Below, piece after piece: positions 2,953 to 42,741 of a DNA stretch of 43,430 nt. A model generated the notes under the pieces. The model was not told the origin of the DNA. It saw only the letters and a list, made by a program, of their open reading frames with translations, and did no database searches. The stretch is from Candidatus Eiseniibacteriota bacterium (GTDB taxonomy: Bacteria > Arandabacterota > Arandabacteria > Arandabacterales > Arandabacteraceae). Position 1 is the first letter of the stretch. Every line of letters begins with the position of its first letter. The stretch covers positions 1 to 43,430 of the forward strand of contig JBDRNT010000062.1 in the NCBI GenBank assembly GCA_043810925.1, written 5' to 3'. The translations under genes and the position numbers were made by a program.

Positions 2953-2968
2953 AACTTAGCTCAGATTG

Positions 2969-3009
2969 AGGCAGGCACCGATTGCCACTGAATCGGTGCC
3001 TGCCTTCTT
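2969..3009 (+). terminator. Probable intrinsic terminator
   Basis: Perfect 15-bp stem AGGCAGGCACCGATT/AATCGGTGCCTGCCT with 7-nt loop, 16 nt after the S8 stop; short TTCTT tail. Confidence 0.8.
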
Positions 3010-3143
3010 GTCAGACATAGATCCTGCGACGGCCTCCGCTCTTGTGAAGAACTCGCGTAGTCTTGCCATGACGGCCGATTGACCCTCCCCACAAAGGCTA
3101 ATGGCTTGCCCACCAGGGCCGATAACAAAGAAGGAGTCTAAAT

Positions 3144-9100: not shown

Positions 9101-12100
9101 GGAGGGCACAGCCCATGTCTTGACCATCGAGATCCCGAGAAATGGCTACAGTGATGATGTCCTGGAGATTCTCTCGGTCCTCAATGCCGGGACCGCTGAC
9201 ACGGTGGACATCGATTCCCTCTACCTCTATATGGATACCGGAAACAGATCATGGGACGGGCCTGACAACGAGTCCAAGATCGGGAATCTGTCCTTCACCG
9301 GCGACCACTGGGAGATCAGCGGGCTCTCGGTTGCTCTGAACGAGCAGACCCAGATGTTCTTCCTGGGAGCCAGACTCGGCGCGGATGCCCAGACAGGCAG
9401 AAGCCTTTCCTTCGGCATCCCCTTGCATGGAATCGAGATGGGCTCGAGTAATGATGGTCCGATCGATGAGCCGGTCGGACCCGTCGAGACAATCACTATC
9501 GCTGCCCCGGAAATGATATCTGTGAGAGTGCTGCCCATCGCCGGACGCGAACTCATTCACGGCGAGGGAACCGGGCCCCTTGTGGGCATAGAGTTCGCCA
9601 ATGGATATCCGGTGCCTGTCGGGATCGATAGCATCACGTTCGTTCTTGAGGCTCAAGATCCGGATGGTGCGCCTCAGGATGTACTTGACGCCCAGTTGGG
9701 TTCCGTGGAGCTCTGGTTGAACCGCGACCCGTACATTTCTGTGCGGGGCCCCGCAGACAGCTTGATAGGTTCTGCGGACCTCACGGATGGCGCAGCTTTG
9801 CTCAGGGTCGGAAGCCTTCTCCTCCCCGCGGGGTGTGTCAAAGAGGTGTTCATCGAGAGCAGCCTGGACCCGGTAAACAGCAAGAATGGAAACATCATAA
9901 ACTTCTCAGTGATCTCCGAGAACAGTATCCACTTTGCCTTACCGGCGCAGGTAACCGGGGGATTCCCCCTGATCAATGCCGAGGACTTCAGTATCAACAT
10001 CTTCCAGGCCGCCAGCGTTGCCCTGCACCCCGTGGCGAGCACCAGGCTATTCGGCAATCAGCCTGACCAGCTCGTGCTTGACTTTGGGCTGCCTCGAAAC
10101 GGATATGACGACGATGTTCTTGAGTCCCTCAGGATTCAGAACACGGGTAGCACTGCAGGCCTCGATGCTCTTTCCGGCGCAAGGCTCTGGGCTGACCCCA
10201 ACGATAATGGCTTGTCGGGTGACGAGACCCTGCTTGGCGATTTCGAATACGACGAGGGTACCTGGCTGATAGACGGGCTCTCCTATCCCCTGACGGATTC
10301 GGGCAATCGCTTTCTGGTCACCGTGGATGTGGAATCTGAAGGGTTCGAAGGCGGTACGGTAAGATTCGAGATTCCAGTCCAGGGGATCCAGTATCATTCC
10401 GGTACAGACGGCCCGGACGACAGGCCTGTCGGCAACCCTGTGGGCCACCTCCTGTTCCCCGCCAACCGTATCACGGTGATCCCGATCCCGCAGGACGCCA
10501 CCGTAACGGAGCCGGGAGCGACATCTATAGAGGTTCTCACATTCGCACTCTACAACGGCTATATGGACCGGGCACATGTGCTCGAGACGGTAAGGCTCTC
10601 AAACCGAACCAGATCTGTTTCGACAGACGAGTTTGCAGACTATGAGCTGGGTCAGGTTTCCTTCCACTATGATCAGGATGGGAACCGGGAGTTCCACCAG
10701 GACTCGCTCCTGGCAACAGGCTATTTCAGTGATAGCGAACTCAGTCTCAGCGGGCTGAACATTGTGCTGGCCGCCGAATCGCTTGCCTATTTCTTTGTCA
10801 CGGCAGATCTGCCACTGGACATAATCGACTCGGACACGCTGGACATTACAATACAGGAGACCTCGGATTTCACCTTCGCCGAGACTGTCAACATCAACGG
10901 CAATCTCCCTGTGTCCAGGGGTGGTGAGCTTGTGGTTGACGGTTCGGTATTGAGGCAGTACGAGGTCCTGGACGTGGCCCTTCGGACCTTATCCCCCGGG
11001 GATCAATCAATACCGGTTCTCGCCTTTCGCCCTGCCGTTAACGGTGACAGGATTGACACCCTGTTTGCGTTGACCGTCACAAATGCCGCAGATGCTGAAG
11101 GCAATGATATCGAGTCTCTGTGGCTCTACCTTGATGACAACGGTGATGACACATGGCAGCCGGTCGATCAGCTTCTGGGGCAGGCCGAGTATGACGGAAG
11201 CGAGTGGAAGTTCAACGCTTTGAACCTGGAAGTTGAAGGCAGCCCGGCAGCTCTTTTCCTTGTCGCGGACATTGCAGATCAGGCCACTCCGAACAGGGTC
11301 CTTCAGGCCGTCATCCCGACCGGTGGTTGTGAATATGGATCCGATAACGACGGGCCCAGGGACGCCGCCATCACAGCTGCACAAGCGTTTATCATTTCAA
11401 GTTCAGGCTTCAGGGTAACATACCACACGCCCAGGTCGGCTTATTCTGTCGGGCAGGGGGTTCCAATCGAAGTAAGCGTAACGAACCTCATGCCTGTCGG
11501 CTTGAACGACGTCTCATGCGGAATCGTTCTGCGTGGTCAGCCGTCGATATTACGTTTAGACGGCTCGTTTGTCGGTCCATCCGAGATCGAATCGGGCGAA
11601 ACGGCTGTATTCTCCGCGGATTACACTGCCATAGAGCCAGGTGAGATCTTCTGGGAAGTCCAGGCTTTCTCTCCGGCTCTTCAGGAGTCCTCTGCCGTGG
11701 TTCGAACCGAGCCGGTGACTATACAGAGCGCCCCGGCAAGCGTGGATATCGATCTTATAAGCTCCATTCCCACTTCGGTGACAAAGGGACAGTCACGTGT
11801 GTTCCCAATGAGTATCAAGTGCCGCCATTCAGATGGATCACCACTGGCTGCGCCCATGAGGTTGGACAGTCTGCGCCTGAGGGTCCTTGATGAAAACGGA
11901 GACCCCCAGGATGCCGACCAGGTCTTCTCGCGCATGGTGCTGGCCACAGGATACACAAACCTGGCTATTCTCGACCAGTTGCCCCCGGATGCTGATGTGG
12001 TTCTTGCATTCGACCAGCCCGCAATCTTATCTCCCGGCACGGAGCAGATCCTGTCGCTCAGGGTGGATATAGACAGTGCCGCCACTGTGGATTACTACGC

Positions 12101-14042: not shown

Positions 14043-16051
14043 CAAAGCCTCTGTTGATAGCTCTATGCATGACCCTGTCGGCCAGCCTGCCCTCCATTGC
14101 GGGTGATGCTGGAACTGAGTCTCCGTTCAGTTTTGGGGCAGGCGCCAGAGAGCTCGGCCTCGGAGGGTCCGTGATCAGCAGACCAGACCCGGCAACAGCG
14201 GTGTACTGGAACCCTTCGGCGCTGGCCGGACTCGAGCGCACGGCCTTCGAAGCCTTTCACAGCCGCCTCTATGCGTCAGGGTCCGTCTATCAGTATCTCG
14301 GGGGTTCGATGCCGACAATGGACATGGGGACTTTCGGGTTCGGGCTTTTCCGGCTGGGAACTGACGCAATAGAGAGACGAGATGAGAATAACCTGCTTCT
14401 CGGGCTCATAGAGGACAACCGCATTGCCATGTACTTCGGCTACGGCCGAACAGTATCAAGCTATGATCTGGGCATGGCTCTTTCATTCGAGCATCACTCG
14501 CTCGGTGACCTCAGCGCGACGTCCTCGCCGGGCCTGAACCTCTCAATACGGCGACAGTTCCAGATGCCGCAACTGCGCCTGCCGGAACTGTCCGTCAGTC
14601 TCTGTGGAAGAAACATAGTCAGACCTCATATCACGCTTTCAGGCGAAGCCGTTGACCTGCCTCCGTCGTTCGATATCGCTTTCTCGGCAGGGTTTGTTCC
14701 CATTCCGGAGTGGAATCACAACCTCACTCTCTCGACGGGCATCTCCAAGGTGGACATCCTGGATCCGAGGTTCCTGGTGGGTCTTGAATACGATGTTGAG
14801 GAATTCCTTCACATCCGCGGGGCTCTCAGGGATGGAGACCCTTCATTTGGAGCAGGCCTGAGCTACAGGCTCTTCAGCTTTGACTACGCCTATCTGGATC
14901 GAGATCTCGGTGGGATGCATATGTTCAGCGTCAGTGCCGGACTGGGCATGGCCATGAGCGAGAAGAGAGAGACTCGTGACATTCGGCGCGAGACCGAGTT
15001 TAACCAGCTGATCAACAAGGGGCTTGCCGACAGGAACCTCAAGATGGTTGCCGACATGCTAAACAGGGGCGAGAAGCTGATGGAGCAGGGCTCACTGTCT
15101 GAGGCCAGGACCACATTTGACAGGGCATTGTTCCTGGCGTCGGGAGGTGGCATGGACACTACGGATATGTATGACACGGCCCTGGGGACAAGTCTGCGCC
15201 TTGACGGGGAGATCCGAAAACGGGCCTTCGAGGCGCACATGGATTCCGCATGGGCAAAACTGAGTTCCGGGGATTACCTGGCCGCGAGATTCTTCGCAGT
15301 CCAGGCCGCAGGACAGATGCCCCACTCCACCACAGCCAGCGATCTTCTGGACCAGATAGACCTTAAGATGGCGGAGAGTGAAACAAACTACCTCCTCATC
15401 GAACGTCGGATTCAATTGGCGGACTCACTCACAAGCTATGGGAGATACGATGAGGCCCTGGCCGCAGCCAGAACGCTCAGAGGAGTATCGGATGATGCCC
15501 GCATCGCCAATTTGATTAAGAAGGCCGAATTCGGGATCTGGAGAGGCGTGGCGGAAGCAGCCTTCGCAGAGACTGAATACCGCTCGGCATACGCCGCGGT
15601 CGACTCCGCCCTCAGCCGTCTCCCGGATCATCCGTGGGGCGCGGCAATGAACGATCGGATTTCGCAAGAGACAAAACGCTCAAGAGTTACCGTCACCCAG
15701 GCGGAAGCGCAAACATCGCGAGCTCTGAGTGACGAGTTGCTCAAGGAGGTAGACCTTGCATACAAGAGTGGGCAGAAACTCTTCAGGCAAGGAAGTCTGT
15801 GGGATGCCGTTTCCAGCTGGGAACGCGTGGAAACTCTTGCACCGGGGTACAAATCGGTGCGCGAGTATCTGGTGGATGCCTACAAGTTTCTGGGGGTAGA
15901 GCTTTACACCCAGAACCGACTGGAAGAAGCAGTAGATGTCTGGAAGAAGGCGGAGAAGCTGAGCCCGGATAGTAGTGAGATCTCGGGATACATCAGAAGG
16001 ACCGAAGGGGAAATGTCAAGAATGCAGGAGATCTCTTATGAGTTCAAGTAA
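14039..16051 (+). CDS. PorV/PorQ-like (UPF0164-type) outer-membrane beta-barrel fused to a C-terminal TPR region
   Basis: Signal peptide; GAGARELGLGG...AVYWNPSAL motif; barrel end FDYAY...HMFSV; helical TPR-like tail; ATGA overlap with the upstream gene. Confidence 0.8.
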   Translation: MTKPLLIALCMTLSASLPSIAGDAGTESPFSFGAGARELGLGGSVISRPDPATAVYWNPSALAGLERTAFEAFHSRLYASGSVYQYLGGSMPTMDMGTFGFGLFRLGTDAIERRDENNLLLGLIEDNRIAMYFGYGRTVSSYDLGMALSFEHHSLGDLSATSSPGLNLSIRRQFQMPQLRLPELSVSLCGRNIVRPHITLSGEAVDLPPSFDIAFSAGFVPIPEWNHNLTLSTGISKVDILDPRFLVGLEYDVEEFLHIRGALRDGDPSFGAGLSYRLFSFDYAYLDRDLGGMHMFSVSAGLGMAMSEKRETRDIRRETEFNQLINKGLADRNLKMVADMLNRGEKLMEQGSLSEARTTFDRALFLASGGGMDTTDMYDTALGTSLRLDGEIRKRAFEAHMDSAWAKLSSGDYLAARFFAVQAAGQMPHSTTASDLLDQIDLKMAESETNYLLIERRIQLADSLTSYGRYDEALAAARTLRGVSDDARIANLIKKAEFGIWRGVAEAAFAETEYRSAYAAVDSALSRLPDHPWGAAMNDRISQETKRSRVTVTQAEAQTSRALSDELLKEVDLAYKSGQKLFRQGSLWDAVSSWERVETLAPGYKSVREYLVDAYKFLGVELYTQNRLEEAVDVWKKAEKLSPDSSEISGYIRRTEGEMSRMQEISYEFK

Positions 16052-17636
16052 GCAGGGTCTATTGGCAAGCGATTGGCCGGACCCTTCGAGCTTCAAACAG
16101 TCAATACGACTGCAGTTTACGGTTTACGTATGCGGGATGATACTGGTCCTGATGCTCGTGACCGGATACGTGATCTCGGACCGGTATGTCAAGACAGTGA
16201 CCTGGAACATGGTGGATAAGATTCTGGTCCAGGCACGGTCGTATTCGGTGCCCGCAGGTAAGATGATCATACTGGGCAATGAGCCCGATGTCCTGATGCT
16301 CAATAATGTCTGCAAGCGGATAGCCTCGGATAACCCCGACGTCTACTGGGCCGGCATAACCGGGACAGACGATGTCTTCCTGGCACACACCGACATAAGG
16401 CAGGTGGTCGCGTCCAAGAAGATGGGACACATAAATGCCACCGGATTTCACGACATGCTTAGGCCCGGAGAGGGCTTCAGTGTCGATGGCGATGCAGTGT
16501 TTACATCCGTCCCCATAACAGAGAATGAGGTACACCTCGGCCGGTTGGTGGTGGCTGCCTCCGCACGCCCGATAAGCGAGGCGAGACGAAGCTCGATACT
16601 GACCGTCGCATCGATAACGGCCGTGATGGTGATTGCGGGTATACCAGGAACAGTCTTCGTGCTCCGGCGCAAACTCCGGCCCATCAGTACGATCACCAAC
16701 CATCTCAAAAACATCGACTTCGAGAATATCTCTCTCGATATACCTTTCAGGAGCAAGAACGAATTCGGTTTCCTGGCAGAGACCCTTCGCGCGATGGGTT
16801 CGAAGCTGCAAATCGCGCACAGAGAGCTCATTGAAAAGGACAGAATGACCCGGGAACTCGAGATTGCCAGAGAGATCCAGGCGAGCATTCTCCCGAAAGG
16901 CTATCCTCACGGTCCGCGGTTTGACCTGGCTGGGGCCTATAGCAGCGCCAGGGAAGTCGGTGGAGACTACTATGACTTCATCGACATAGACTCGGACCAT
17001 CTTGGTATCCTGATAGCGGACGTCTCCGGCAAGTCGCTCCCGGGCATGCTCGTAATGCTGCTCACCCGCGATATCGTACGGCGGCTCGCCATATCGGCTA
17101 CCGAACCGGCTGAACTCCTTGCGGCTGTAAATGCCGAACTTTTCGCCGAGATCAAGAGGAACATGTTCGTGACAATGTTCTTTGGCATCCTCGACACGCG
17201 CTGTGGATGTTTCCGGTTCGCCTCGGCCGGGCATAACCCGCTGGTATTCGTAAGTGCTGAGAGAAGCGAGACGGAGCTCATCAAGACCAAGGGTTACCCT
17301 CTGGGAATGGTCGGTGGCGACTCGTACAGGACGAGAATCGAGAGCCGGGAGATCATGCTCTCCCAGGATGACTGGCTCATCCTCTACACGGACGGCATCA
17401 ATGAGGCGCAGAATGTTCGCGGTGAGGAGTTTGGAACATCTCGTTTTGTAGAGATCATCAACGCTCATAAGAGACTGGCAGCAGGACCTTTCATAGATGG
17501 TGTGGTGCGGGAGCACGCAGCTTTCGTGGGTGAGAATGAGCAGTTTGATGACATCACTCTGATAGCCGTCAAGTGGACAGCCAGGTGTGCCGATGAAGAA
17601 TCAGCGAGACTAAAGGAGACAGCCGATGCCACCTAA
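16038..17636 (+). CDS. Membrane-bound HAMP + SpoIIE/PP2C (RsbU-like) phosphatase
   Basis: Two TM segments, HAMP (NEFGFLA), ELEIAREIQ, VGGDYYDF, IADVSGK, ASAGH, LYTDG, DDIT. Start placed at ATG 16038 after CAGGAG, overlapping the upstream stop. Confidence 0.93.
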   Translation: MSSSKQGLLASDWPDPSSFKQSIRLQFTVYVCGMILVLMLVTGYVISDRYVKTVTWNMVDKILVQARSYSVPAGKMIILGNEPDVLMLNNVCKRIASDNPDVYWAGITGTDDVFLAHTDIRQVVASKKMGHINATGFHDMLRPGEGFSVDGDAVFTSVPITENEVHLGRLVVAASARPISEARRSSILTVASITAVMVIAGIPGTVFVLRRKLRPISTITNHLKNIDFENISLDIPFRSKNEFGFLAETLRAMGSKLQIAHRELIEKDRMTRELEIAREIQASILPKGYPHGPRFDLAGAYSSAREVGGDYYDFIDIDSDHLGILIADVSGKSLPGMLVMLLTRDIVRRLAISATEPAELLAAVNAELFAEIKRNMFVTMFFGILDTRCGCFRFASAGHNPLVFVSAERSETELIKTKGYPLGMVGGDSYRTRIESREIMLSQDDWLILYTDGINEAQNVRGEEFGTSRFVEIINAHKRLAAGPFIDGVVREHAAFVGENEQFDDITLIAVKWTARCADEESARLKETADAT

Positions 17637-26899: not shown

Positions 26900-26992
26900 T
26901 GGCTCCCCGGACAAGTGTCTCAGAGCGTGGTCTTGTGGGATAGTGTGGCAGCTGCAACAAAACGGATTGCCAAGGGGCACGTGAGGCTGTCG
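26900..26992 (+). repeat. Dispersed att-like element, copy 1 (long form)
   Basis: TGGCTCCCCGGACAAGTGTCTCAGAGCGTGGTCTTGTGGGAT...GTGAGGCTGTCG; 71/93 identical to copy 6 without gaps. Confidence 0.92.
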
Positions 26993-27265
26993 GCCGCACC
27001 TTGTTCAAATGGACTCAACACCGATCGCACGAGCCAAACGATTGCCCTCGCGGCATGCTACCCTATCCTCGCATTGGCGAGTTCCTGACCAAGACCTGTT
27101 CGCCGGCCCGCCTAATCGGAAACTGCACAAAAGGTCAAGAGATTGTGCGCATCAGAGACCTTTGGCGGAGTCTCTGAGGTTGAGCCTGGTTCCCCCGGCC
27201 ACACCTCTGGAGGATATGCATGCTCAGCTACCTGTCATTTGCCTGTACAGGGATGATTTTACTCA

Positions 27266-28965: not shown

Positions 28966-29007
28966 TGGCTCCCCTGAGAAATGTCTGAGGGTGCGGTTCT
29001 GTGGGAT
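28966..29007 (+). repeat. Dispersed att-like element, copy 2 (degenerate)
   Basis: TGGCTCCCCTGAGAAATGTCTGAGGGTGCGGTTCTGTGGGAT; ungapped match to the 42-nt core. Confidence 0.85.
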
Positions 29008-29104
29008 GTTATAGCGGTTGCGGCAAACACGTGGTTATGATCAGAAGACGGGACGCCTCGGCAGCCTATCCACCTCGAGGCCGACTGTCACATCAAGTCT
29101 GAGT

Positions 29105-29491: not shown

Positions 29492-30274
29492 CTATATCCC
29501 AATGTCCAATGCCCCTTTCCGGGAACATGTAGCGACGCAGTCCAGGCAACTAGTACAGTCGGACCTGGCAACCTTCGCCAGAGTTGATACAGGGATGCGT
29601 TGAAGGCACCCTGCGTCACAGGCACCACAACCATTACAGCGCGCATCATTACGTGTTACCTTCAGTAATCCTATCCTTGACAGTGGGGTCATCACTGCGC
29701 CAAGCGGACAAAGGTATCGACACCAAGCCATCTCAAATAGGAATGTCGCTGCCAGGACACCGCCTAAAATACTCAGACTCACCACGGGAATCAACCCGTG
29801 CCCCCTACCACCGGTGAATAATATATAGAAAGGATCATACCCCCTGAAGATCAGTTCAGAGGTCCAGAAAGTGAAAACCAGGATCAAGCCAAGGACTACG
29901 TATCTCAGATTCACCAGTATTCTATCTATGATGTCGGGCACTCTCAGAGTGTCTCGTCCCATGACCCTTTTTCGCACCCAAACCAGAGACTCGAAGATTG
30001 TTCCCAGCGGGCAGACCCAGCTACAGAAGCCTTTCTTCATGACGATGACTCCCACCAAGACCGCCAGAGCGATGCTCACGTTCATCTCATTGAGAGCACA
30101 GATGAACTGCTGTCTACTCAGAAGGCCATAGATGGAAACCACACCGCCCATAGGGCAATAGTACTCAACCGTCTTAGCACTGGTACCTGCAAGCCCGCGT
30201 ATCAGAAGGGATATGGCGCCCCCGAGGAAGAAGAGCTGGAATAACCGTCTTGTGACTCTTATCTTAGCCATCAC
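29492..30274 (-). CDS. Membrane 4Fe-4S binding protein (NapH/YccM/MauN-like)
   Basis: YCPMG, FCSWVCPLG, WCRYLCPLG, CNGCGACDAGC, CTSCLDCVATC. Confidence 0.9.
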   Translation of the reverse strand: MMAKIRVTRRLFQLFFLGGAISLLIRGLAGTSAKTVEYYCPMGGVVSIYGLLSRQQFICALNEMNVSIALAVLVGVIVMKKGFCSWVCPLGTIFESLVWVRKRVMGRDTLRVPDIIDRILVNLRYVVLGLILVFTFWTSELIFRGYDPFYILFTGGRGHGLIPVVSLSILGGVLAATFLFEMAWCRYLCPLGAVMTPLSRIGLLKVTRNDARCNGCGACDAGCLQRIPVSTLAKVARSDCTSCLDCVATCSRKGALDIGI

Positions 30275-30609
30275 TCATAAGATATGCGACACCAGACGGC
30301 CAGTCCATCGAAAAGTGTTTGCCGTCCACAGAACCCGGACGCGGAAGGTGTATCATCTACGTCGTACCTGGCGGCCACGGGAGACCAGCCTCACCTCAGC
30401 GCTTTGGCCACCGGACAGGCTGTTCCCCCAAAGCCGAGTCTATATCCTTCTTGTACACTCCGTGCTCCACCTGTGCTTCGATCGTCAACCAGCCCCTGCG
30501 GTGGAACTGATACGGCCTTTCCATCACGATGCGATACTCGGGCACGCTTATGTCAAAATAGCCCTATGCGGACGATTACTCGACATAGGGTCACTATCCG
30601 AGGCTGGGA

Positions 30610-30677
30610 CACGCTTTCAGACATTTGAATGCCAATGGCTCCCCGGGCAAGTGTCTGAAAGCGTGGTTCTGTGGGAT
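30610..30677 (+). repeat. Dispersed att-like element, copy 3, with complete inverted left arm (attP-like)
   Basis: CACGCTTTCAGACATTTG (30610-30627) and CAAGTGTCTGAAAGCGTG (30648-30665) are 17/18 inverted, symmetric about GG 30637-30638. Confidence 0.92.
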
Positions 30678-30932
30678 ACAAACGCCTTCTGCTGGTCGTC
30701 AGGCCGGAAGTGGCTCGACCCACGTGATACTGCAACCCTATCGCCAGGACGATAGGGTTGCCGCTCTGAGCTCGCGATTGTCGGGATTTGAGGGGCAAAT
30801 GCGGAACCCCGGGATGTTCTCATGGGTCTAAGAGAAGAGACCGATACACTTGTATATAGATGTGTACGATCGAGGCTGGGTTTGGTATTCTCTTGTAGGA
30901 ACGCTCGGCGGGCGAAAGGGACGGCGATAGAC

Positions 30933-31391
30933 ATGAGATCTGGGCTTCACAGGTTTGTCAGAATACCGGATGCCTGCGTATGGCTCTGGGTTCTCGCTCT
31001 TGTGGCCCAGGCATCGGCCGTGGCCCCTGTGTTGTGTATGAAGATGGATGGTCAGGTCGAGGTGGAAGCCACCTGCACTTGCCATCGCGGCCCCGCTTCA
31101 CATGGGTTTCCCTCTTTATCATCTTCGAGTTCAGTCTTAGATACGAACCTCAACGATCGGTGCGGCGGATGTTTCGACCTCCAATCCCCGATTGGTGCGG
31201 GAGTACCCGTAGGTGTCGACCAGGGCTCATTGCCAGGCATCAAGTCACTGAGGTCGGGAGCATTTGCGGCCTCACCGACTACTCCCACAGATGTAGCGGT
31301 GGGTATCCAGCATGGGGTGCCTGCTTCACGCCGATCACCTCCTGACAAGACTTCACTAGTCTCTCTCCGAACGACTGTCCTCCTTTGTTGA
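30933..31391 (+). CDS. Cys-containing small protein preceding the efflux operon (CzcI-like position)
   Basis: Hydrophobic N-terminus, VLC...DGQVEVE, CTCH, CGGC, C-terminal LRTTVLLC. Start chosen at ATG 30933. Confidence 0.6.
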   Translation: MRSGLHRFVRIPDACVWLWVLALVAQASAVAPVLCMKMDGQVEVEATCTCHRGPASHGFPSLSSSSSVLDTNLNDRCGGCFDLQSPIGAGVPVGVDQGSLPGIKSLRSGAFAASPTTPTDVAVGIQHGVPASRRSPPDKTSLVSLRTTVLLC

Positions 31392-31512
31392 TGCTCTCCT
31401 GAGCAGTCATCTGCACGCCTATCTACGCGAGCAACTTCAATTGACATGGCATGGGAGGATGAACATTGGTCAAAGACAAGTCAGCGATGGGGTCACTCCG
31501 GAGGTTTTCTTG

Positions 31513-32901
31513 ATGCGTCTGAAATATCTTATCCTGTTCGTTCTAGCCCCGGCAGTTGCGCTGAGTGGCTGCACCACACCTCATGTGAATGCGAGCCGGT
31601 CCGAGGCACGCCCTCTTGGAAGTGACTTCGAGACATTCCAGGCACCTGAAGAGCCATCTGAGGTATCGGTGCCGGCAGGGCCGGAAGGCCCCACCGATGA
31701 AGAGCCCACCGGTATCATCGACATGCGCCAGGCTCTGGCCCAGGCACTGATAAATAGCCCTGAGCTCGCGGCCTTTTCCTGGGAGGTCAGGGCCAGCGAG
31801 GCCGCCGCAGTCCAGGCCGGGCTCTTTCCAAACCCTGAGATTGGCGTTGAAATGGAGAATTTCGGCGGCTCCGGGGAATTCGAGGGCTTTGATGGAAGCG
31901 AGACCACATTCCGGCTCAGTCAGCTAATCGAACTGGGAGGGAAGCGTTCGGGCCGGGCGCGAGTCGCTGCATTGGATCTGAATCTCGCCGGGTGGGATTA
32001 CGAAAGCAAGCGCCTGGAGGTTGTCAGCGAAGCGACCAAGGCCTTTGTGGATGTTCTTGCTGCGCAGGAGAGGCTGGCACTCACTGAAGAACTGGAAGAC
32101 CTGGCCGATGAGGTTTTCAATGTCGTACGAGAGCGGGTCCGGCATGGAAAAGTCTCTCCCGTGGAGGAGGCGAGAGCCGGAGTTGTCCTGGCTTCCAGTC
32201 GAATAGAGACGGAGAAAGCTGGGCGCGAACTCGAGGCATCGCGGAAGCGGCTGGCAGCAATCTGGGGCAGTTCGTCGCCCGCCTTTGAGAGCGTCAGCGG
32301 AGAGCTTGAAGTCATCGAATCCATCCCTCCTGCCGGAACGGTTGCCCGCCACGTGTCACGGAACCCGGATATTGTCCGCTGGGCCGCCGAGATGGAGCAA
32401 CGCGAAGCCGCCTTAGACTTGGAGAAGGCAAGGAGGATCCCTGACCTCACGTTGAGTGGAGGTGTCAAGCACTTCAGGGAGATGGATATCAACGCCTTCG
32501 TGGTGGATCTGTCTATTCCCCTCCCCCTCTTCGATCGGAATCAGGGAGGAACCCGAGAGGCAAGATACAGACTGGCCAAAGCCAGCGAGGAACGCAGAGC
32601 TTCTGAAGTGCGGGTTCGTACCGCGCTTGCGGAAACACATCTGTCACTCTCCGCTGCCTATGCGCAGGCGGTGGCCCTGAGAGACGATGTGCTCCCGGGA
32701 GCCACGACCGCTTTCGAGGCAGCAAGCGAGGGCTATCGCCTTGGGAAATTCAACTACCTGGACGTTCTGGATGCCCAAAGGACCCTGTTCAAAGCCCGCG
32801 AGCAGTACATCGAGACGCTGGCGGCCTACCACAAAGCATCTGTCGATGTTGAGAGATTGATCGGGGAGCGCCTTGATGCCGTTAAGAACACCCCCGAATA
32901 G
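31513..32901 (+). CDS. czcC: TolC/CzcC-family outer-membrane efflux lipoprotein
   Basis: GGAGG RBS, lipobox LSGC, QAGLFPNP, IELGGKR, PLPLFDRNQG, LDVLDAQRTL. Confidence 0.9.
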   Translation: MRLKYLILFVLAPAVALSGCTTPHVNASRSEARPLGSDFETFQAPEEPSEVSVPAGPEGPTDEEPTGIIDMRQALAQALINSPELAAFSWEVRASEAAAVQAGLFPNPEIGVEMENFGGSGEFEGFDGSETTFRLSQLIELGGKRSGRARVAALDLNLAGWDYESKRLEVVSEATKAFVDVLAAQERLALTEELEDLADEVFNVVRERVRHGKVSPVEEARAGVVLASSRIETEKAGRELEASRKRLAAIWGSSSPAFESVSGELEVIESIPPAGTVARHVSRNPDIVRWAAEMEQREAALDLEKARRIPDLTLSGGVKHFREMDINAFVVDLSIPLPLFDRNQGGTREARYRLAKASEERRASEVRVRTALAETHLSLSAAYAQAVALRDDVLPGATTAFEAASEGYRLGKFNYLDVLDAQRTLFKAREQYIETLAAYHKASVDVERLIGERLDAVKNTPE

Positions 32902-32917
32902 AATCTCAGGAGGCATT

Positions 32918-34525
32918 ATGAGGAGTATGAAGCAAATGATTCCCGTCGCCGTGATATTAGTTGCCATAGCGGTCGTTCTTGTGGTGGTCAAGGGCAAAGA
33001 ATCACCGAGTCCCGGAGACATCCACATGACGAGCTCGCAGCCTGTGACCGGCCCGCGACCCGCAGCGGCCCAAGGGCAAGAGCTCTGTGCCAGACATCAG
33101 CTCCCGGTCGCGGAGTGTTTCTCCTGTGATCCCACCTTGAGAGAGCCGGGCCGGCTGTGGTGCAAGGAACATGATCGTTATGAAGACCGATGTTTCATCT
33201 GCCATCCGGACTTAGTGGATACGGGACGCCTGTGGTGCGAGGAGCACCGCCTCTACGAAGATGAGTGCTTCTTCTGTCATCCGGAACTTCGCGAGGAGGA
33301 AACAGGCTCCGCGGAAGGCGACGCTTGCTGTCCCGGAGACGCCGAAGCAAGGACTTCCCCACCCGGTGAACTCCTATGCGTCGAGCACGACGTCTGGGAA
33401 AGTGAGTGCGGGATCTGTCATCCGGAGTTGATCGCCAATCTTGAGCCCGGCCAGGGCCTGAAGATACGTCTGGCGTCCCCGGAATCGGCCGCGAAAGCCG
33501 GGGTCGAGACATCGGTGGGCGCCAAAGGCAGCTCCCTTGGGGGACTGGTGGTCTTGAGCCGCCTGTCATACGACCAGAACCGGCTTGCCCGCATCACCCC
33601 TCTCGCGGCCGGGGTCGTTCGGAACGTGTATGCGGATGTGGGGGATTCGGTCTCAAGGGGACAGGTGCTTGTCGAGATTGACTCTCCGGATATCGCCCGG
33701 GCAAAGAGTGACTACTTGAACTCACTTGCGGACGAAGCCTTGAAGGAACTCGTCTTCAACCGGGAAAGGGATTTACTCGCAAAGAACATCACCTCCCAAC
33801 AGGAGTACGAGGAAGCTTCAGCAGAGTACCAGATGGCCACGAACGCCACGAAGACCAGGTGGCAGCAGCTCCTGAACTATGGATTGACCGAGAGATACGT
33901 TCAGGAAGTGGCGGAGACGAGCTCAAGCTCCTCTCGCCTTCCCATACTGGCGCCGTTCTCCGGAACGCTTGTTGAGAGAGATGCCGTCATTGGCGAGGCC
34001 GTAGAGGTCGGTGACATGTTGTTCACCCTTGCCGATCTGTCGTCGATGTGGCTGGAGCTCTCGATCCCAGAGGACAGGTTGTCTTCAGTAGAAGTAGGTG
34101 ATCCCGTTGAAGCGACTTTCGATGCTCTCCCCGGAATGAGCGTGAGCGGCCAAGTGATCTGGCTGGCCTCAAGCATTGATGAGCAGAGCCGGATGATCAA
34201 GGCCCGCGCGATCATACAGAACCGGGGTTCGTCGCTAAAGCACGGGATGTTCGGACAAGTACGGATCTTACCGAAACGGAATCTCAGCGGACTCCGTGTT
34301 CCGGGCCAGGCCCTTCATCATATCGATGGAATCCCTGTCGTTTTCGTTAAGCTCGAGGATGATCTTTACGAGATTCGGAGGGTTGCCCTGGGAGGTAACA
34401 CAGGAGGTAGTGTCGAGATTCTGGAGGGGATTCTCCCGCAAGAAGAAGTTGTCGTGGCCCACAGCTTCACGATGAAATCAGAATTTCTCAAGTCCCGCCT
34501 CGGCGCGGGATGTGTACATGAATAA
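32918..34525 (+). CDS. czcB: CzcB-like RND periplasmic adaptor with N-terminal Cys/His repeats
   Basis: AGGAGG RBS, TM anchor, APFSGTLVER, ADLSSMW, LKHGMF; lies between TolC and RND genes. Confidence 0.88.
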   Translation: MRSMKQMIPVAVILVAIAVVLVVVKGKESPSPGDIHMTSSQPVTGPRPAAAQGQELCARHQLPVAECFSCDPTLREPGRLWCKEHDRYEDRCFICHPDLVDTGRLWCEEHRLYEDECFFCHPELREEETGSAEGDACCPGDAEARTSPPGELLCVEHDVWESECGICHPELIANLEPGQGLKIRLASPESAAKAGVETSVGAKGSSLGGLVVLSRLSYDQNRLARITPLAAGVVRNVYADVGDSVSRGQVLVEIDSPDIARAKSDYLNSLADEALKELVFNRERDLLAKNITSQQEYEEASAEYQMATNATKTRWQQLLNYGLTERYVQEVAETSSSSSRLPILAPFSGTLVERDAVIGEAVEVGDMLFTLADLSSMWLELSIPEDRLSSVEVGDPVEATFDALPGMSVSGQVIWLASSIDEQSRMIKARAIIQNRGSSLKHGMFGQVRILPKRNLSGLRVPGQALHHIDGIPVVFVKLEDDLYEIRRVALGGNTGGSVEILEGILPQEEVVVAHSFTMKSEFLKSRLGAGCVHE

Positions 34526-34543
34526 CCGCCGGAGGGCACCCTT

Positions 34544-37500
34544 ATGCTAGGCAGGATCATCGAGACGTCGCTGAAGAACCGGCTGGTTGTGGTTCTTGTC
34601 ATCGCCGTGAGCGTTGGGCTGGGCATCCGGGCCATGACGCGCACTCCCGTGGATGCCTTTCCTGACACCACACCGGTACAGGTGCAGATCAATACCACCG
34701 CGCCGGCCCTGAGCCCGGCGGAAATCGAACAGCAGATCACGCTCCCGGTAGAACTCTCGATCGCCGGTCTGCCGGGTCTCACCAATGTTCGCTCAATCTC
34801 GAAGTTCGGCTTCTCACAAGTCGTCGCTACGTTTGACGACCAGACCCACGTATACGATGCCCGCCAGTTCATTCTCGAGCGGCTCGGGAGCGTCAACCTC
34901 CCGGAAGGCATAGGGCGCCCCCAGCTCGGACCCATGTCAACAGGCCTGGGAGAGGTCTTTCACTATATTGTCCGCTCTACCAATCCTGACCGTTCCCTTG
35001 ACGAGCTCCGGACTCTTCATGACTGGGTCGTTAAGCCGGAGCTGCGCAAGGTGGCGGGGGTGGCAGAAGTCAATTCGTGGGGTGGTTTCGAGCGGCAGTA
35101 CCACGTAATCACGGCACCCCGGGCTCTCATCAGCTACCATCTCACCCTGGACAGTGTTTTTGAGGCCCTTGAGAAGAACAATCAGAATGTCGGAGGCGGA
35201 CAGGTCGTAACCTCCGGTCAGACCCTGCTGGTTCACGGCGTGGGTCGCGTCACCACCATCGAAGAGATCGAGAACATAGTCATCAAGGCGCACGAAGGCG
35301 CCCCTGTCCGCATAAGGGATGTAGCAGAAGTCGCACTGGGACACGAGATCCGCCGCGGCGCAGTTACGGCTCACGGACAAGGAGAGGCCGTGTTGGGGCT
35401 CGGTTTCATGTTGATGGGAGAGAACAGCAAGGAGGTTACCGAGGAACTAAAAGCGCGGCTGGAATCGGTCCGGAAATCCCTGCCCGACGATGTCGTCCTG
35501 GAAACTGTTTACGATCGTACGGAGCTGGTGCAATCGGTTATCGGCACGGTTAAGCACAATCTGATCGCCGGAGCCGCACTGGTAGTTGTCGTGCTGTTTC
35601 TGTTCCTGGGGAATCTCCGGGCAGGTCTGATAGTCGCCCTGGCAATCCCCCTCGCCTTGATCTATGCATTCCTGGGCATGTACGCGCTTGCCATCGCCGC
35701 GAGTCTCTTGAGTCTTGGCGCGATGGACTTCGGTATCATCGTCGATGGCTCCGTGGTAATGACAGACAACAACATGCGGAGATTAGTCGACGAGCAGAAG
35801 CGCCTGGGAAGGGCTCTCAATAAGGCCGAGCGGCTCAGGATCATCCTCGCTTCGAGCAAGGAAGTCGTGCGCCCCATCGTATTCGGCATGGCCATCATCC
35901 TGATCGTGTTCTTTCCAATCCTCACCCTGGAAGGCATCGAGGGGAAGATGTTCAAACCTATGGCCTGGACCTTCATCTTCGCCATGGTCGGAGCAGCAGC
36001 GGTAGCCGTGACTCTATCTCCCATCCTGTCCTACTACTTCCTCCCTCGAAGACTCAAGGAGAAGGAAGGCTTTGTCGAGAGGTTGCTGAAGAGAGGTTAC
36101 TCCTTCCTCATCTCCAGGGTGCTTGGCAGGAAACGAATGCTTTTCAGTTCGGTCCTGATCCTACTTGCGCTGACGGCTCTCGTAGGCTCCAGACTCGGGG
36201 GCGAATTCATTCCCAAGCTCCGCGAGGGAGCGATCGTCATCAATACCATACGTCTTTCAGGAGTCTCAATCGATGAGTCGGTCGACTACAACAGTCGAAT
36301 TGAGGCCCTCCTGCTGGAGAGCTTTCCAGATGAGATCAAGTACATCTGGAGCCGGATCGGGACAGCCGAAGTGGCAACAGATCCCATGGGCATAGAGCTG
36401 ACCGACTTCTTTATCACGCTTCATCCCAGGGACAGGTGGACGCGTGCGGGAACCCAGGCCGAACTGGTCAAACGGATGGAGGAACTGGTCGATGACTTGC
36501 CCGGGCTTAACATGATATTCACACAGCCCATAGAAATGCGCCTGAATGAGATGGTCTCCGGCATTCGCTCGGATGTCGGCGTCAAGATTTTCGGGGATGA
36601 CTTCGACACCCTGGTTGGTCTGAGCGATCAGATTCAGGGAATACTCCTGGCCATCGAGGGTGCCTCAGACGTGGCCGGGGAGCAGATTACAGGACAACCA
36701 ACATTACAGATTATGGTGAACCAGGATCAGCTCGCCCGGCATGGCATCCCGGCACGCAATGTGCTCGACCTGATCGAGAGCGTGGGCGGGCGTCGCGTAG
36801 GTGACATTTTCGAGGGTCAGAGGCGCTTTCCCCTCGTGGTGAGGCTCCCTGACGAGCAGCGCACAGATGTAGGAATCCTGGCCAATACGTTGATTCCCAC
36901 CGAAGTTGGTCCGCTCTTGCCACTACGCCGGCTAGCTGAGGTGAGGGAAACCGAAGGACCATCGACCATCAGCCGCGAGTGGGGCCGTCGCCTGATCAAA
37001 GTGCAGTGCAATGTCAGAGACCGGGATGTTGCATCGTTTGTGAAAGAAGCACGGTCCCGCATTGATAATGAAGTGACATTGCCCGAAGGGTACGTGCTCG
37101 AATGGGGAGGTCAGTTCGAACATCTGGAACGCTCTAAAATGAGATTCTCGATCGTTGTGCCCATCACGTTGGCACTCATCTTCCTCGTGCTGTACTTCAG
37201 CCTCAAAAGCCTGAGTGATGTGCTCATCATTTATACTGGCATTCCCTTCGCAGCCATAGGAGGCGTGTTGGCTCTCTGGGGTCGGGGGATGCCCTTTAGC
37301 GTGAGCGCGGCAATTGGATTCATCGCTCTCAGCGGCGTTGCTGTTCTGGATGGACAGGTGCTGGTTTCTACCATCCGGACTTTGCGGAGTCAGGGCCTTC
37401 CATTGGTTGAGGCCGTGATAGGAGCGGCAAAGCAGCGGCTCCGGCCCGTCCTGGCAACATCAGTCACTGACGCGGCCGGGTTTATCCCCATGGCCATTTC

Positions 37501-37663
37501 GACCGGGGTTGGAGCGGAGGTGCAGCGCCCCCTCGCCACAGTGGTCATCGGGGGTATCACTACCTGCACTCTTCTGACGCTGTTCGTGCTTCCGGCACTG
37601 TATCTTGCTCTAGGTAGGTGGATGGAGAAGAGAGCCCGCTTGTATTCTGACCCGACCGCCTAG
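34544..37663 (+). CDS. czcA: CusA/CzcA-family heavy-metal efflux RND permease
   Basis: DAFPD, STGLGE, SLGAMDFGIIVDG, EGKMFKPMA, FTQPIEMR, RLRPVL, GAEVQRPLATVVIGG. Confidence 0.95.
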   Translation: MLGRIIETSLKNRLVVVLVIAVSVGLGIRAMTRTPVDAFPDTTPVQVQINTTAPALSPAEIEQQITLPVELSIAGLPGLTNVRSISKFGFSQVVATFDDQTHVYDARQFILERLGSVNLPEGIGRPQLGPMSTGLGEVFHYIVRSTNPDRSLDELRTLHDWVVKPELRKVAGVAEVNSWGGFERQYHVITAPRALISYHLTLDSVFEALEKNNQNVGGGQVVTSGQTLLVHGVGRVTTIEEIENIVIKAHEGAPVRIRDVAEVALGHEIRRGAVTAHGQGEAVLGLGFMLMGENSKEVTEELKARLESVRKSLPDDVVLETVYDRTELVQSVIGTVKHNLIAGAALVVVVLFLFLGNLRAGLIVALAIPLALIYAFLGMYALAIAASLLSLGAMDFGIIVDGSVVMTDNNMRRLVDEQKRLGRALNKAERLRIILASSKEVVRPIVFGMAIILIVFFPILTLEGIEGKMFKPMAWTFIFAMVGAAAVAVTLSPILSYYFLPRRLKEKEGFVERLLKRGYSFLISRVLGRKRMLFSSVLILLALTALVGSRLGGEFIPKLREGAIVINTIRLSGVSIDESVDYNSRIEALLLESFPDEIKYIWSRIGTAEVATDPMGIELTDFFITLHPRDRWTRAGTQAELVKRMEELVDDLPGLNMIFTQPIEMRLNEMVSGIRSDVGVKIFGDDFDTLVGLSDQIQGILLAIEGASDVAGEQITGQPTLQIMVNQDQLARHGIPARNVLDLIESVGGRRVGDIFEGQRRFPLVVRLPDEQRTDVGILANTLIPTEVGPLLPLRRLAEVRETEGPSTISREWGRRLIKVQCNVRDRDVASFVKEARSRIDNEVTLPEGYVLEWGGQFEHLERSKMRFSIVVPITLALIFLVLYFSLKSLSDVLIIYTGIPFAAIGGVLALWGRGMPFSVSAAIGFIALSGVAVLDGQVLVSTIRTLRSQGLPLVEAVIGAAKQRLRPVLATSVTDAAGFIPMAISTGVGAEVQRPLATVVIGGITTCTLLTLFVLPALYLALGRWMEKRARLYSDPTA

Positions 37664-37709
37664 AATAGGGCCACTCCTGGAGGCAGACCTACGCCTCTGG
37701 GCACTTGAG

Positions 37710-37751
37710 CGGCTCCCCGGATGAATGTCTGAGAGCGCGACTCTGTGGGAT
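37710..37751 (+). repeat. Dispersed att-like element, copy 4
   Basis: CGGCTCCCCGGATGAATGTCTGAGAGCGCGACTCTGTGGGAT, between the convergent czcA and BNR genes. Confidence 0.88.
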
Positions 37752-37808
37752 GCACTGGCCCTTGGGACTTGGTGCAGATCGTGGCAAGAGACCGTTGGAC
37801 GCAGACTG

Positions 37809-40464: not shown

Positions 40465-40536
40465 CGGCTCCCCGGGCAAATGTCTGAAAGTGTCCTCTTG
40501 CTAGATGCTGTGGCACTCTTTGCACGAGGGATTGCA
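40465..40536 (+). repeat. Dispersed att-like element, copy 5
   Basis: CGGCTCCCCGGGCAAATGTCTGAAAGTGTCCTCTTGCTAGATGCTGTGGCA...GGGATTGCA aligns ungapped with copies 1 and 6. Confidence 0.88.
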
Positions 40537-40722
40537 TGATCACCTAACCCCTCGCCCCGAGCCGATACCGGACTCCGCGTAAGGGTACCGCTAGCGGCGA
40601 GAGCCTGCCGGCTCATATCATAGCACCCCACGATGATTCTCCTTGTTTCTGGAGCCTGACCAACTCGGGCGACCTAAGCAATCAAGTGATTCTCAAAGGG
40701 AATATGAAACCTTTCCTCCCCG

Positions 40723-42345: not shown

Positions 42346-42412
42346 ACATGGGATACAGACCTCGAGCAGGCAGACAAGAAGGTGAACGGTGCAATACCCC
42401 CAGGAAGTGGTG

Positions 42413-42505
42413 TGGCTCCCCGGACAAATGTCTGAAAGCGTGGTTTTGTGGGATAGGGTAGCGCTTGTGGCTAAACGGGTTGCGAGAGGACAGGTAAGGC
42501 TATCT
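42413..42505 (+). repeat. Dispersed att-like element, copy 6 (long form)
   Basis: TGGCTCCCCGGACAAATGTCTGAAAGCGTGGTTTTGTGGGAT...GTAAGGCTATCT. Confidence 0.92.
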
Positions 42506-42741
42506 CCCCCCCCCAAAAAACGATCTTCGCAAACTCTTGATGAGCGAAAAGTGTGTCAAGATCCCGAGTTCTTGGAGAGTCGTAAGAGGCCGACAGGCAT
42601 GACTGCCGGGGCCCACCGCGTCCCCTACTCTGCCAACCTTTTATGAGCACTAATGTAGTACCAAGTAAATGTATATAGCGGTTTTGATATAGTATTTATT
42701 CAATAGTCGGGCTTTTTCTTGTTTTGTCTGAGTCAATTCTC

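Follow-up and report, generated by a model that had tools for sequence, protein, structure and literature searches.

What kind of sequence is a short intergenic repeat whose copies diverge from one another as though they were protein-coding? The question is raised by the window, that is, the whole stretch of 43,430 nt analysed here (contig JBDRNT010000062.1 of assembly GCA_043810925.1). Six copies of the repeat start in it at positions 26900, 28966, 30636, 37710, 40465 and 42413, all of them on the + strand and all intergenic. An earlier note on this DNA had compared the first and the last of these copies by hand, and its count is exact: copies 1 and 6 differ at 22 of 93 nt, without indels, with 5, 3 and 14 differences at the first, second and third codon positions, respectively, and the translations given for them are exact as well. 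The reading RLPGQMSESVLLLDAVALFARGIA holds for copy 5, with a stop directly after it, and the early TGA codons reported for copies 2 and 4 are present.

Copies of the repeat in the window and in the genome

The features of the window that concern the repeat are listed below. The core is an 11-nt block, to the left of which lies the P arm and to the right of which lie the P′ arm and the tail.

26900..26995, + strand, copy 1: core TGGCTCCCCGG, P′ half-site and open 32-codon tail; the P arm upstream is barely recognisable
28966..29061, + strand, copy 2: core and decayed tail, with TGA at codon 4 and another stop further on
30486..30635, + strand, recombinase remnant before copy 3: last ~50 codons (P arm)
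30636..30678, + strand, copy 3: core and first 14 codons only
30679..37647, + strand, efflux cassette: unknown ORF, OEP outer-membrane factor, HlyD/CusB-like adaptor and AcrB-family pump
37635..37709, + strand, remnant of a recombinase C-terminus (P arm) before copy 4: decayed, ~25 codons, found by tblastn at 37635–37763
37710..37805, + strand, copy 4: core starting with CGG, TGA at codon 5, tail decayed
40465..40560, + strand, copy 5: core and tail open for 24 codons
42413..42508, + strand, copy 6: core, P′ half-site and open 32-codon tail

As was found by an nhmmer search with a profile built from the six window copies (E <= 1e-3), the genome assembly to which the window belongs (G000; 3.85 Mb, 92% complete) contains 34 copies across 19 contigs, a count that puts the repeat far above chance. 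Many of the G000 copies lie on short contigs or close to contig ends. All copies on a given multi-copy contig share the same strand (9/9 contigs), and the distance between neighbouring copies is typically 0.3–4 kb, with a maximum of ~7 kb in the window. Stops or frameshifts interrupt 10 of 32 G000 tails.

The tail was also detected in at least seven of the 30 relatives searched, six of which belong to the same family and one to the same order. The genome G001, which belongs to the same genus, has ~23 tail places, and 43 further copies are situated in 14 stretches of relatives, being co-oriented within each stretch.

Copy 5 is located between divergent genes encoding a BNR/T9SS protein (− strand) and a TetR regulator (+ strand). 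Copy 6 is found inside a mechanical 85-aa ORF (42389–42646) between the genes of a CPBP protease and an LVIVD-repeat protein. The 180-aa ORF around copy 3 (30213–30755), which is arginine-rich and of low complexity, was rejected as spurious, because the homology with other copies upstream stops ~150 nt before the core.

Anatomy of the site

In the alignment of the 34 copies, the onset of conservation is sharp and coincides with GGCTCCCC, at the core. A near-invariant block of 42 nt is followed by ~55 nt that are weakly conserved as DNA, yet the peptide they encode is conserved. The consensus of the tail over the copies is WLPGQMSESVVLWDxVxLxxKRIARGxxRLSL, and the length of the tail beyond the RLS motif is variable. 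A minority of copies, including window copies 3 and 4, reach ~100–150 nt further upstream, and in these longer copies the frame reads ...LYGRPPEIGPLSEGDSRFQTLE ahead of the W.

The 11-nt core is the antisense of the acceptor end of tRNA-Asn plus CCA. The attP palindrome, which is ~50 bp long and imperfect, consists of two 20-nt inverted arms flanking a 10-nt spacer, TGGCTCCCCG. The complementarity of the arms is 17/20 in the best site and at least 12/20 in 10 of the 45 scored sites; arms of the same site pair at a mean of 14.6/20 and arms of different sites at 13.7/20, a difference too small to rely on. In copy 3, the 18-nt arm at 30610–30627 is an exact inverted repeat of the P′ arm.

The repeat is composed of the core, the right-hand (P′) half of attP and ~30 codons that provide a CcrB-like large serine recombinase (LSR) with an alternative C-terminal tail. 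In most copies the P arm is absent or decayed, whereas the core and the P′ block are nearly invariant, and a single P-only copy was found (contig C108). Neutral decay of whole junctions does not predict such an asymmetry. Gene conversion, use of the site by a recombinase supplied in trans and repeated site-specific deletions are possible sources of it. As for copy 3, a complete tail precedes the same efflux block in the relative G011, so the distal part of its tail was lost by deletion.

Association with a large serine recombinase

The earlier note placed the site in the 3′ end of a gene, probably that of the recombinase, and this is borne out by contig C63 of G000, where a single open frame of 166 aa (2529–3026, − strand) comprises an LSR coiled-coil/C-terminal region running directly into the repeat; the frame of the repeat extends there 125 codons upstream into LSR C-terminal-like sequence. 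This fragment matches 27 longer proteins (292–2000 aa) with 42–80% identity over 56–85% of the query, and PF07508 and/or PF13408 are present in 24 of the 27. Full-length homologues have a length of 537–570 aa (~545), contain PF00239, PF07508 and PF13408, and are 64–80% identical to the C63 fragment. Among the 11 matches whose sequences were examined, the full-length ones end with ...LYGRPPE.GPLS...QTFDWLPGQDSNLQPSG, ...WLPGQDSNLQPSG or similar. The N-truncated LSRs P0002, P0003 and P0005 carry the window-type tail at the C-terminus instead, as do the recombinases of the metagenome loci L047, L048, L051 and L085 (4 of 54 loci). The match of the peptide to LSR C-termini that had been predicted from the window is found in all of these sequences, the C63 fragment included.

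The homologous loci L041–L089 and the proteins P0004–P0028 show an LSR with Resolvase, Recombinase and zinc-ribbon domains beside the site. In the window, the LSR next to the site is represented by stubs only (30486–30635 and 37635–37709); tblastn matched positions 30486–30680 to the C63 recombinase fragment with 45% identity. In the G000 assembly, the 166-aa fragment and shorter stubs of this LSR family were found but no full-length member, and a search of 12 same-family genomes likewise yielded no full-length member, only stubs from ~residue 390 on. Other LSR-like ORFs of G000 (on C172, C181, C138 and C168; 583–638 codons) were rejected as carriers of the tail, which is found at none of their ends. 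They belong to other subfamilies, and two of them extend past contig ends.

On C63, just upstream of the truncated recombinase fragment, there is an ORF (2775–3671, + strand) resembling by eye an rve-type (IS481/IS3-like) integrase, and this ORF may have interrupted the fragment. In some proteins, for example P0059, P0080 and P0113, the tail follows a C-terminus that gives the impression of a different recombinase family. An NCBIfam search with six tail-bearing fragments assigned them to no family.

The best NCBIfam match of the L047 recombinase is CcrB, with 157 bits against an equivalog cut-off of 900 for NF047343; the enzyme is a relative of CcrB, not a CcrB equivalog. Beside the L047 LSR, no further serine recombinase was observed. 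The integration module of L047 includes a DnaG-type primase and a sigma-factor-like gene. AlphaFold2 modelling of the L047 recombinase with its tail, based on a 45-row alignment, gave a mean pLDDT of 74.6 for the body and values of 25–51 for the tail; the model predicts no confident fold for the tail and is uninformative about it either way.

The tRNA-Asn target and the exchange of the recombinase C-terminus

Read in antisense, the 3′ end of a tRNA gives the ending WLPGQDSNLQPSG, which occupies 13 codons. In three of the four Dehalococcoidia loci, the last ~38 nt of the LSR gene overlap a tRNA-Asn(GTT) that ARAGORN predicted on the other strand, and an overlap of this kind occurs in 19 of the 54 metagenome loci. 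Of the other metagenome loci, two show an overlap with a tRNA-Gln, several have degenerate tRNA-like peptides at their end and eight leave the contig. With DNA profiles, no tail was detected in the Dehalococcoidia loci (L036–L039). In the metagenome loci L057/L058 and L091–L093, members of the LSR family end in or beside tRNA-Gln, which indicates that the recombinase family has changed its tRNA targets.

The earlier note had also supposed that integration exchanges the C-terminus of the recombinase, possibly as a switch. The two forms were indeed found in nearly identical elements. Positions 1–7493 of L047, the tail form, align with 1548–9053 of L043, the tRNA-Asn form, over 7,506 nt at 99.8% identity, which stops at position 7493 of L047, the last base of the core TGGCTCCCCGG; beyond this base the sequences are unrelated. 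This means that the same element exists with two recombinase C-termini, joined at the 11-nt core. The DNA of L047 beyond the tail belongs to a second element and is ~81% identical to the sequence upstream of the element in the related loci L046 and L048. The tail form of L047 is, therefore, the inner junction of a tandem pair and not a circle. L047 and L051 are homologous as far as the stop codon that closes the tail-extended ORF, and unrelated after it. A search for the far-end junction of an integrated element gave one candidate, L088:35–95, at the left end of the element, with a decayed tail and a core that is not recognisable; this candidate does not settle the crossover point.

In G000, ARAGORN found no tRNA-Asn and no tRNA-Tyr among 41 tRNAs, so the link to tRNA-Asn for this genome rests on its relatives. 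Repeats and tRNAs are commonly missing from assemblies, and the tRNA-Asn gene of G000 may lie in an unassembled repeat-rich region. In contig C148 of G001, the 4.9 kb upstream of tRNA-Asn contain three co-oriented tails, whose side and orientation are as predicted, and LSR C-terminal stubs adjoin tRNA-Asn in contigs C322 of G011 and C48 of G002. In contigs C94, C48 and C103 of G000, the tail is followed by 26–77 kb containing neither a further copy nor tRNA-Asn; thus, not every copy belongs to one array beside tRNA-Asn.

Cassettes between the copies

The blocks between the copies in the window encode a YHS-domain protein and unknown ORFs, an HMA-domain protein together with a 4Fe-4S protein, the OEP/HlyD/AcrB efflux system, a secreted BNR protein carrying a T9SS sorting tail, a TetR regulator along with a CPBP protease, and an LVIVD-repeat protein. 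The efflux block (30678–37647) shares 93% identity with a contig of G011, a family member from a different genus, and 81% with G001. The syntenic core DNA upstream in the window is only 64–68% identical to the same genomes, and the synteny of the window with G001, G007 and G011 stops at ~20.4 kb. The left end of the shared efflux stretch is the core. Judging by these identities, the efflux block points to a recent transfer between genera. The blocks between copies behave as transferable units.

Several other features of the window were observed in passing. In the N-terminal part of the HlyD/CusB-like ORF (32873–34525) there are three direct repeats of 50 nt (33161–33426), each of which encodes a Cys-/His-rich motif, possibly a repeated metal-binding site. 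Four tandem repeats of 306 nt, 76–94% identical, lie at 1429–2646 inside an ORF ending at 2952, and an ORF of 3,632 codons (3144–14042) has several internal repeats with spacings of 840 nt and ~260 nt; both ORFs look like genes of large repetitive surface proteins. The named homologues of a core histidine kinase of the window are 43–47% identical to it and are labelled Zixibacteria, which hints weakly at a Zixibacteria-like host lineage.

An IS110-family insertion sequence (DEDD_Tnp_IS110 and Transposase_20 domains) is present in G000 in at least 4–5 copies, which are 86–92% identical; its ORF encodes 393 aa (L018:3–1181, − strand). The copies lie outside the window:

C26, ~15157–16245: IS110-family copy
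C44, 1–1263: IS110-family copy
C47, 1–171: IS110-family copy
C88, 5394–5971: IS110-family copy
C154, 32392–32531: IS110-family copy

In four copies, the element ends against the repeat at one and the same nucleotide within the 10-nt att spacer, and it takes the place of the upstream TGG and P arm. Transposase gene and recombinase frame are on opposite strands. By the position of these ends, the element seems to use the repeat as a specific target. IS110-family elements insert into REP and attC sites.

Possible selection on the tail

Estimated by the Nei-Gojobori method, pS and pN between copy 1 (26900–26992) and copy 6 (42413–42505) are 0.51 and 0.14, respectively. A larger sample consisted of 70 distinct copies from G000, G001, G003, G007, G009, G011 and G013 and from two metagenome loci. 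For codons 1–14 of the 70 copies, pN/pS is 0.37 in the recombinase frame versus 0.58–1.30 in the other five frames. Heterozygosity in these codons is 0.22/0.13/0.23 by codon position, i.e., third positions are conserved too, which fits a DNA site. For codons 15–31, a subset of 31 of the 70 copies that align without indels was used, picked by nucleotide identity. In this subset, pN/pS is 0.65 versus 0.75–1.07 in the other frames, heterozygosity is 0.43/0.37/0.57, and a stop occurs in the recombinase frame of two of the 31 copies versus 3 to 24 of 31 in the other frames. When codons 15–31 of all 70 copies are taken, pN/pS is 0.89 versus 0.91–1.00 and the frame preference is almost gone. The codon bias claimed from the pair of copies thus persists in the larger alignment, insofar as the recombinase frame has the lowest pN/pS, but it is weaker than in the pair. 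The coding signal is real but modest, and pS is near saturation. Between the intact genes of L047 and L051, the 49-codon tail has 8 synonymous and 9 non-synonymous differences, giving a pN/pS of 0.35, against 0.067 in the body.

A profile built from 14 tails matched 143 representative proteins (E <= 1e-3) in a library of 1.84 billion proteins. As many as 130 of them are shorter than 150 aa, and 14 have a recombinase stub motif upstream, as judged with a simple pattern. No full-length recombinase was among the 143 matches, and this may be because the 50%-identity clusters are represented by members with the tRNA form of the gene.

Proposed origin of the copies

It is very probable that the copies are junctions resulting from integration of an element that encodes a CcrB-like LSR and targets the 3′ end of tRNA-Asn. 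The attP of this element is inside the 3′ end of the LSR gene, so placed that the last codons of the recombinase body, on the left of the core, serve as the P arm, and the P′ arm and the tail are on the right. When the element is circular, or when it lies upstream of another element, the ~20–40 codons to the right of the core would complete the LSR frame. The target is the tRNA-Asn gene and not another copy of the recombinase gene.

The order of events can be proposed from the geometry of the site. Integration would set the body of the LSR gene against tRNA-Asn, the LSR then ending in 13 tRNA-antisense codons, and would shift the core, the P′ arm and the tail to the far end of the element. The next integration would generate inner junctions, in which the recombinase of one element reads into the tail of its neighbour. 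Copies of the core and tail with unrelated DNA upstream, such as copy 6, may be far-end junctions, or else inner junctions that have lost the recombinase. The recombinase genes once joined to the window copies would have been lost or reduced to stubs, and the copies would now bound cassettes lacking an LSR. Since none of them is joined to a live gene, the window copies are relics. Their protein-like divergence probably dates from the time when each tail served a working LSR in distinct element lineages.

Alternative explanations

That the tail has no function is a credible reading, which we place somewhat below an even chance. In this case, the LSR frame simply continues to the first stop past attP, and the conservation comes from the P′ half-site or a longer DNA binding site, together with gene conversion. 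A trivial run-on of this kind is what McMurdie et al. offered first for dsiB, according to the accessible part of their paper (PMC3146451). Conservation of codons 1–14 even at third positions (0.22/0.13/0.23) agrees with it, as do the pLDDT of 25–51, the variable length beyond RLS and the fact that the LSR body is already of the usual family length. However, the conserved stretch measures ~95 nt in G000 and 147 nt to the stop in L047/L051, against 25 bp for a half-site; in the distal codons third positions vary most, the LSR frame has the lowest pN/pS and stops are limited to 2 of 31 copies; and the homology of L047 and L051 ends at the stop codon. No antisense gene covers the tail of L047, where the convergent ORF ends at 7629. 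Very improbable is an independent small protein gene starting at the conserved ATG/GTG six codons into the repeat. ATG or GTG is present there in all six window copies, gene callers predict short ORFs, and 130 of the 143 library matches are shorter than 150 aa, but in every sequence that has an LSR the frame continues that of the LSR, the upstream codons WLPG are better conserved, the ATG belongs to a palindromic arm, and there is a variant with CTG CCA and no start codon (C101_16476 and C100_34609). A structured RNA, a REP-/MITE-like element or an integron attC is scarcely credible: the repeat is intergenic and dispersed, some copies contain an inverted repeat of 16–18 bp, and an IS110-family element inserts into it, but most copies hold one arm of the inverted repeat only. 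Candidates of this kind were rejected. No known structured RNA was found by Rfam over the whole window, and the six copies fold no better than shuffled sequences (z-scores from +0.16 to +1.87). The hallmarks of attC are the R″ and R′ boxes, RYYYAAC and GTTRRRY; no GTTRRRY/RYYYAAC boxes were seen by eye, only the right half of the site is conserved, and there is no integron integrase among the window ORFs. As for a tRNA fragment, the match is limited to the first 11 nt, ARAGORN found no tRNA at the copies, and no tRNA of G000 ends in the core.

Another explanation keeps the same identity of the repeat and takes another view of its parts, regarding them as a live, integron-like cassette platform operated by a serine recombinase; it is rather unlikely, in our opinion. 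Units composed of core, tail and cargo and lacking an LSR would be excised, captured and shuffled by an LSR acting in trans from a rare autonomous element, or they would be exchanged by homologous recombination between the near-identical 42-nt blocks. Dozens of co-oriented copies per genome (34 in G000, ~23 places in G001 and 43 more in relatives) speak for it, and so does the lack of a full-length LSR of the family in 12 same-family genomes. The efflux cassette is 93% identical across genera against 64–68% for core DNA, and the shared stretch begins at the core. The core and P′ block are also far better kept than the P arm, as if they were in use or gene-converted. On the other hand, most P arms are too decayed for a complete attP, only 10 of 45 sites reaching 12/20, and about one third of the G000 tails have stops or frameshifts (10/32). 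No circular form and no donor LSR were seen in the material, though MAG binning may have lost autonomous elements. Moreover, published islands of similar type are read as products of accretion followed by decay, as far as the accessible text of the study goes (PMC3146451).

We are doubtful of a joint reading in which a tail encoded across its own attP senses topology and, at the same time, a serine-recombinase cassette platform operates at tRNA-Asn. The last 30–50 residues of the recombinase would then be encoded across its own attP, the full-length enzyme would be made only from a circle or from an element upstream of another one, and the enzyme adjoining the tRNA would carry the 13-residue tRNA-antisense end. 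This would amount to a built-in topology sensor that biases integration over excision or alters the stability of the enzyme, and the core and tail sites would trade multi-gene cassettes between genera without resident recombinase genes. Preference is given to the copies being integration junctions of a tRNA-Asn-targeting LSR element, and it is this reading that is compared with known systems below.

Comparison with known systems

The closest published case is that of the ssrA islands of Dehalococcoides with their recombinase DsiB (McMurdie et al. 2011, PMC3146451), as judged from the accessible part of the paper. According to that part, dsiB always overlaps attL, so that the gene terminates within ssrA or within the adjacent island (PMC3146451). 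In the same text, the authors suggest that dsiB is perhaps fully functional only on the circular element, and they read islands without the module as cis-mobilisable elements gained by accretion (PMC3146451). As far as can be judged from it, the system described here is similar in having a CcrB-like recombinase of ~540 residues and a small stable-RNA gene as its target, in the tandem, co-oriented direct repeats with many units lacking an integration module, and in a recombinase ORF that reads across attL. The target differs, being tRNA-Asn here and ssrA in Dehalococcoides, and so does the host lineage; more distant members of the present LSR family are found at tRNA-Asn in Dehalococcoidia. The read-through part is conserved, ~30 codons long and codon-periodic here, whereas it is divergent in length and sequence in DsiB, according to the accessible text (PMC3146451). 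The far-end repeat consists of ~95 nt of P′ arm and tail here, in contrast to the 20-bp copy of the target described for the ssrA islands, and the module contains a DnaG-type primase and a sigma-like gene (L047) instead of the DsiA, RecF, ParB and Mom mentioned in the accessible text. What sets the present system apart from the ssrA islands is above all the conserved read-through tail, along with the target, the host lineage and the content of the module.

In SCC elements (CcrAB/CcrC), the site is in the 3′ end of the target gene rlmH, and two recombinases cooperate. Like SCC, the present system has a recombinase of the CcrB-like family, tandem cassettes often without a recombinase and direct repeats of the att site. 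The site belongs to the recombinase gene here, while in SCC it belongs to the target gene rlmH, and the adaptive cargo is metal efflux and other functions here versus resistance and defence in SCC. Composite arrays of staphylococcal SCC and pseudo-SCC elements are presented in the accessible part of a published report (PMC11470126). Among the tycheposons, 910 of 937 use tyrosine recombinases, and in Prochlorococcus tRNA islands newcomers push older elements inward, leaving fragmented integrases and att remnants, as stated in the accessible part of the source (10.1101/2020.12.28.424599). On this evidence, tycheposons resemble the elements considered here in being integrative elements at tRNA genes with cargo and primase/replication modules; the remnants are partial tRNAs in tycheposons and pieces of the recombinase gene here.

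In mycobacteriophage BPs, which employs a tyrosine recombinase, attP is said to lie inside the repressor gene, and integration reportedly removes a degradation tag. The integrases of SSV1 and pTN3, in which the att site is within the gene, are tyrosine recombinases as well. As in these systems, attP here is in a coding sequence and the C-termini of the free and integrated forms differ; nothing comparable to the tag removal of BPs was seen for the present tail. Integrons also have co-oriented cassette arrays, a repeated recombination site and cassettes common to several genera. Unlike integrons, the present arrays have no IntI and no attC architecture; their cassettes contain several genes and have orientations of their own, and just half of the site is kept. 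In the literature searched, no paper on the present tRNA-Asn element or its tail was found.

Significance

LSRs are genome-engineering tools, and the direction of their reaction is normally set by a separate factor; for this reason, a tail that depends on the element's state would be of bench interest. The tail is the clearest sequence-level case so far of selection on the read-through end of a CcrB-like recombinase, which, in the accessible part of the 2011 study, was raised only as a possibility for Dehalococcoides. The present analysis explains a repeat that breaks assemblies and yields orphan short ORFs (143 representative clusters), and it maps a tRNA-Asn-linked cassette system that moves metal-efflux and other adaptive genes across genera of an uncultured lineage.
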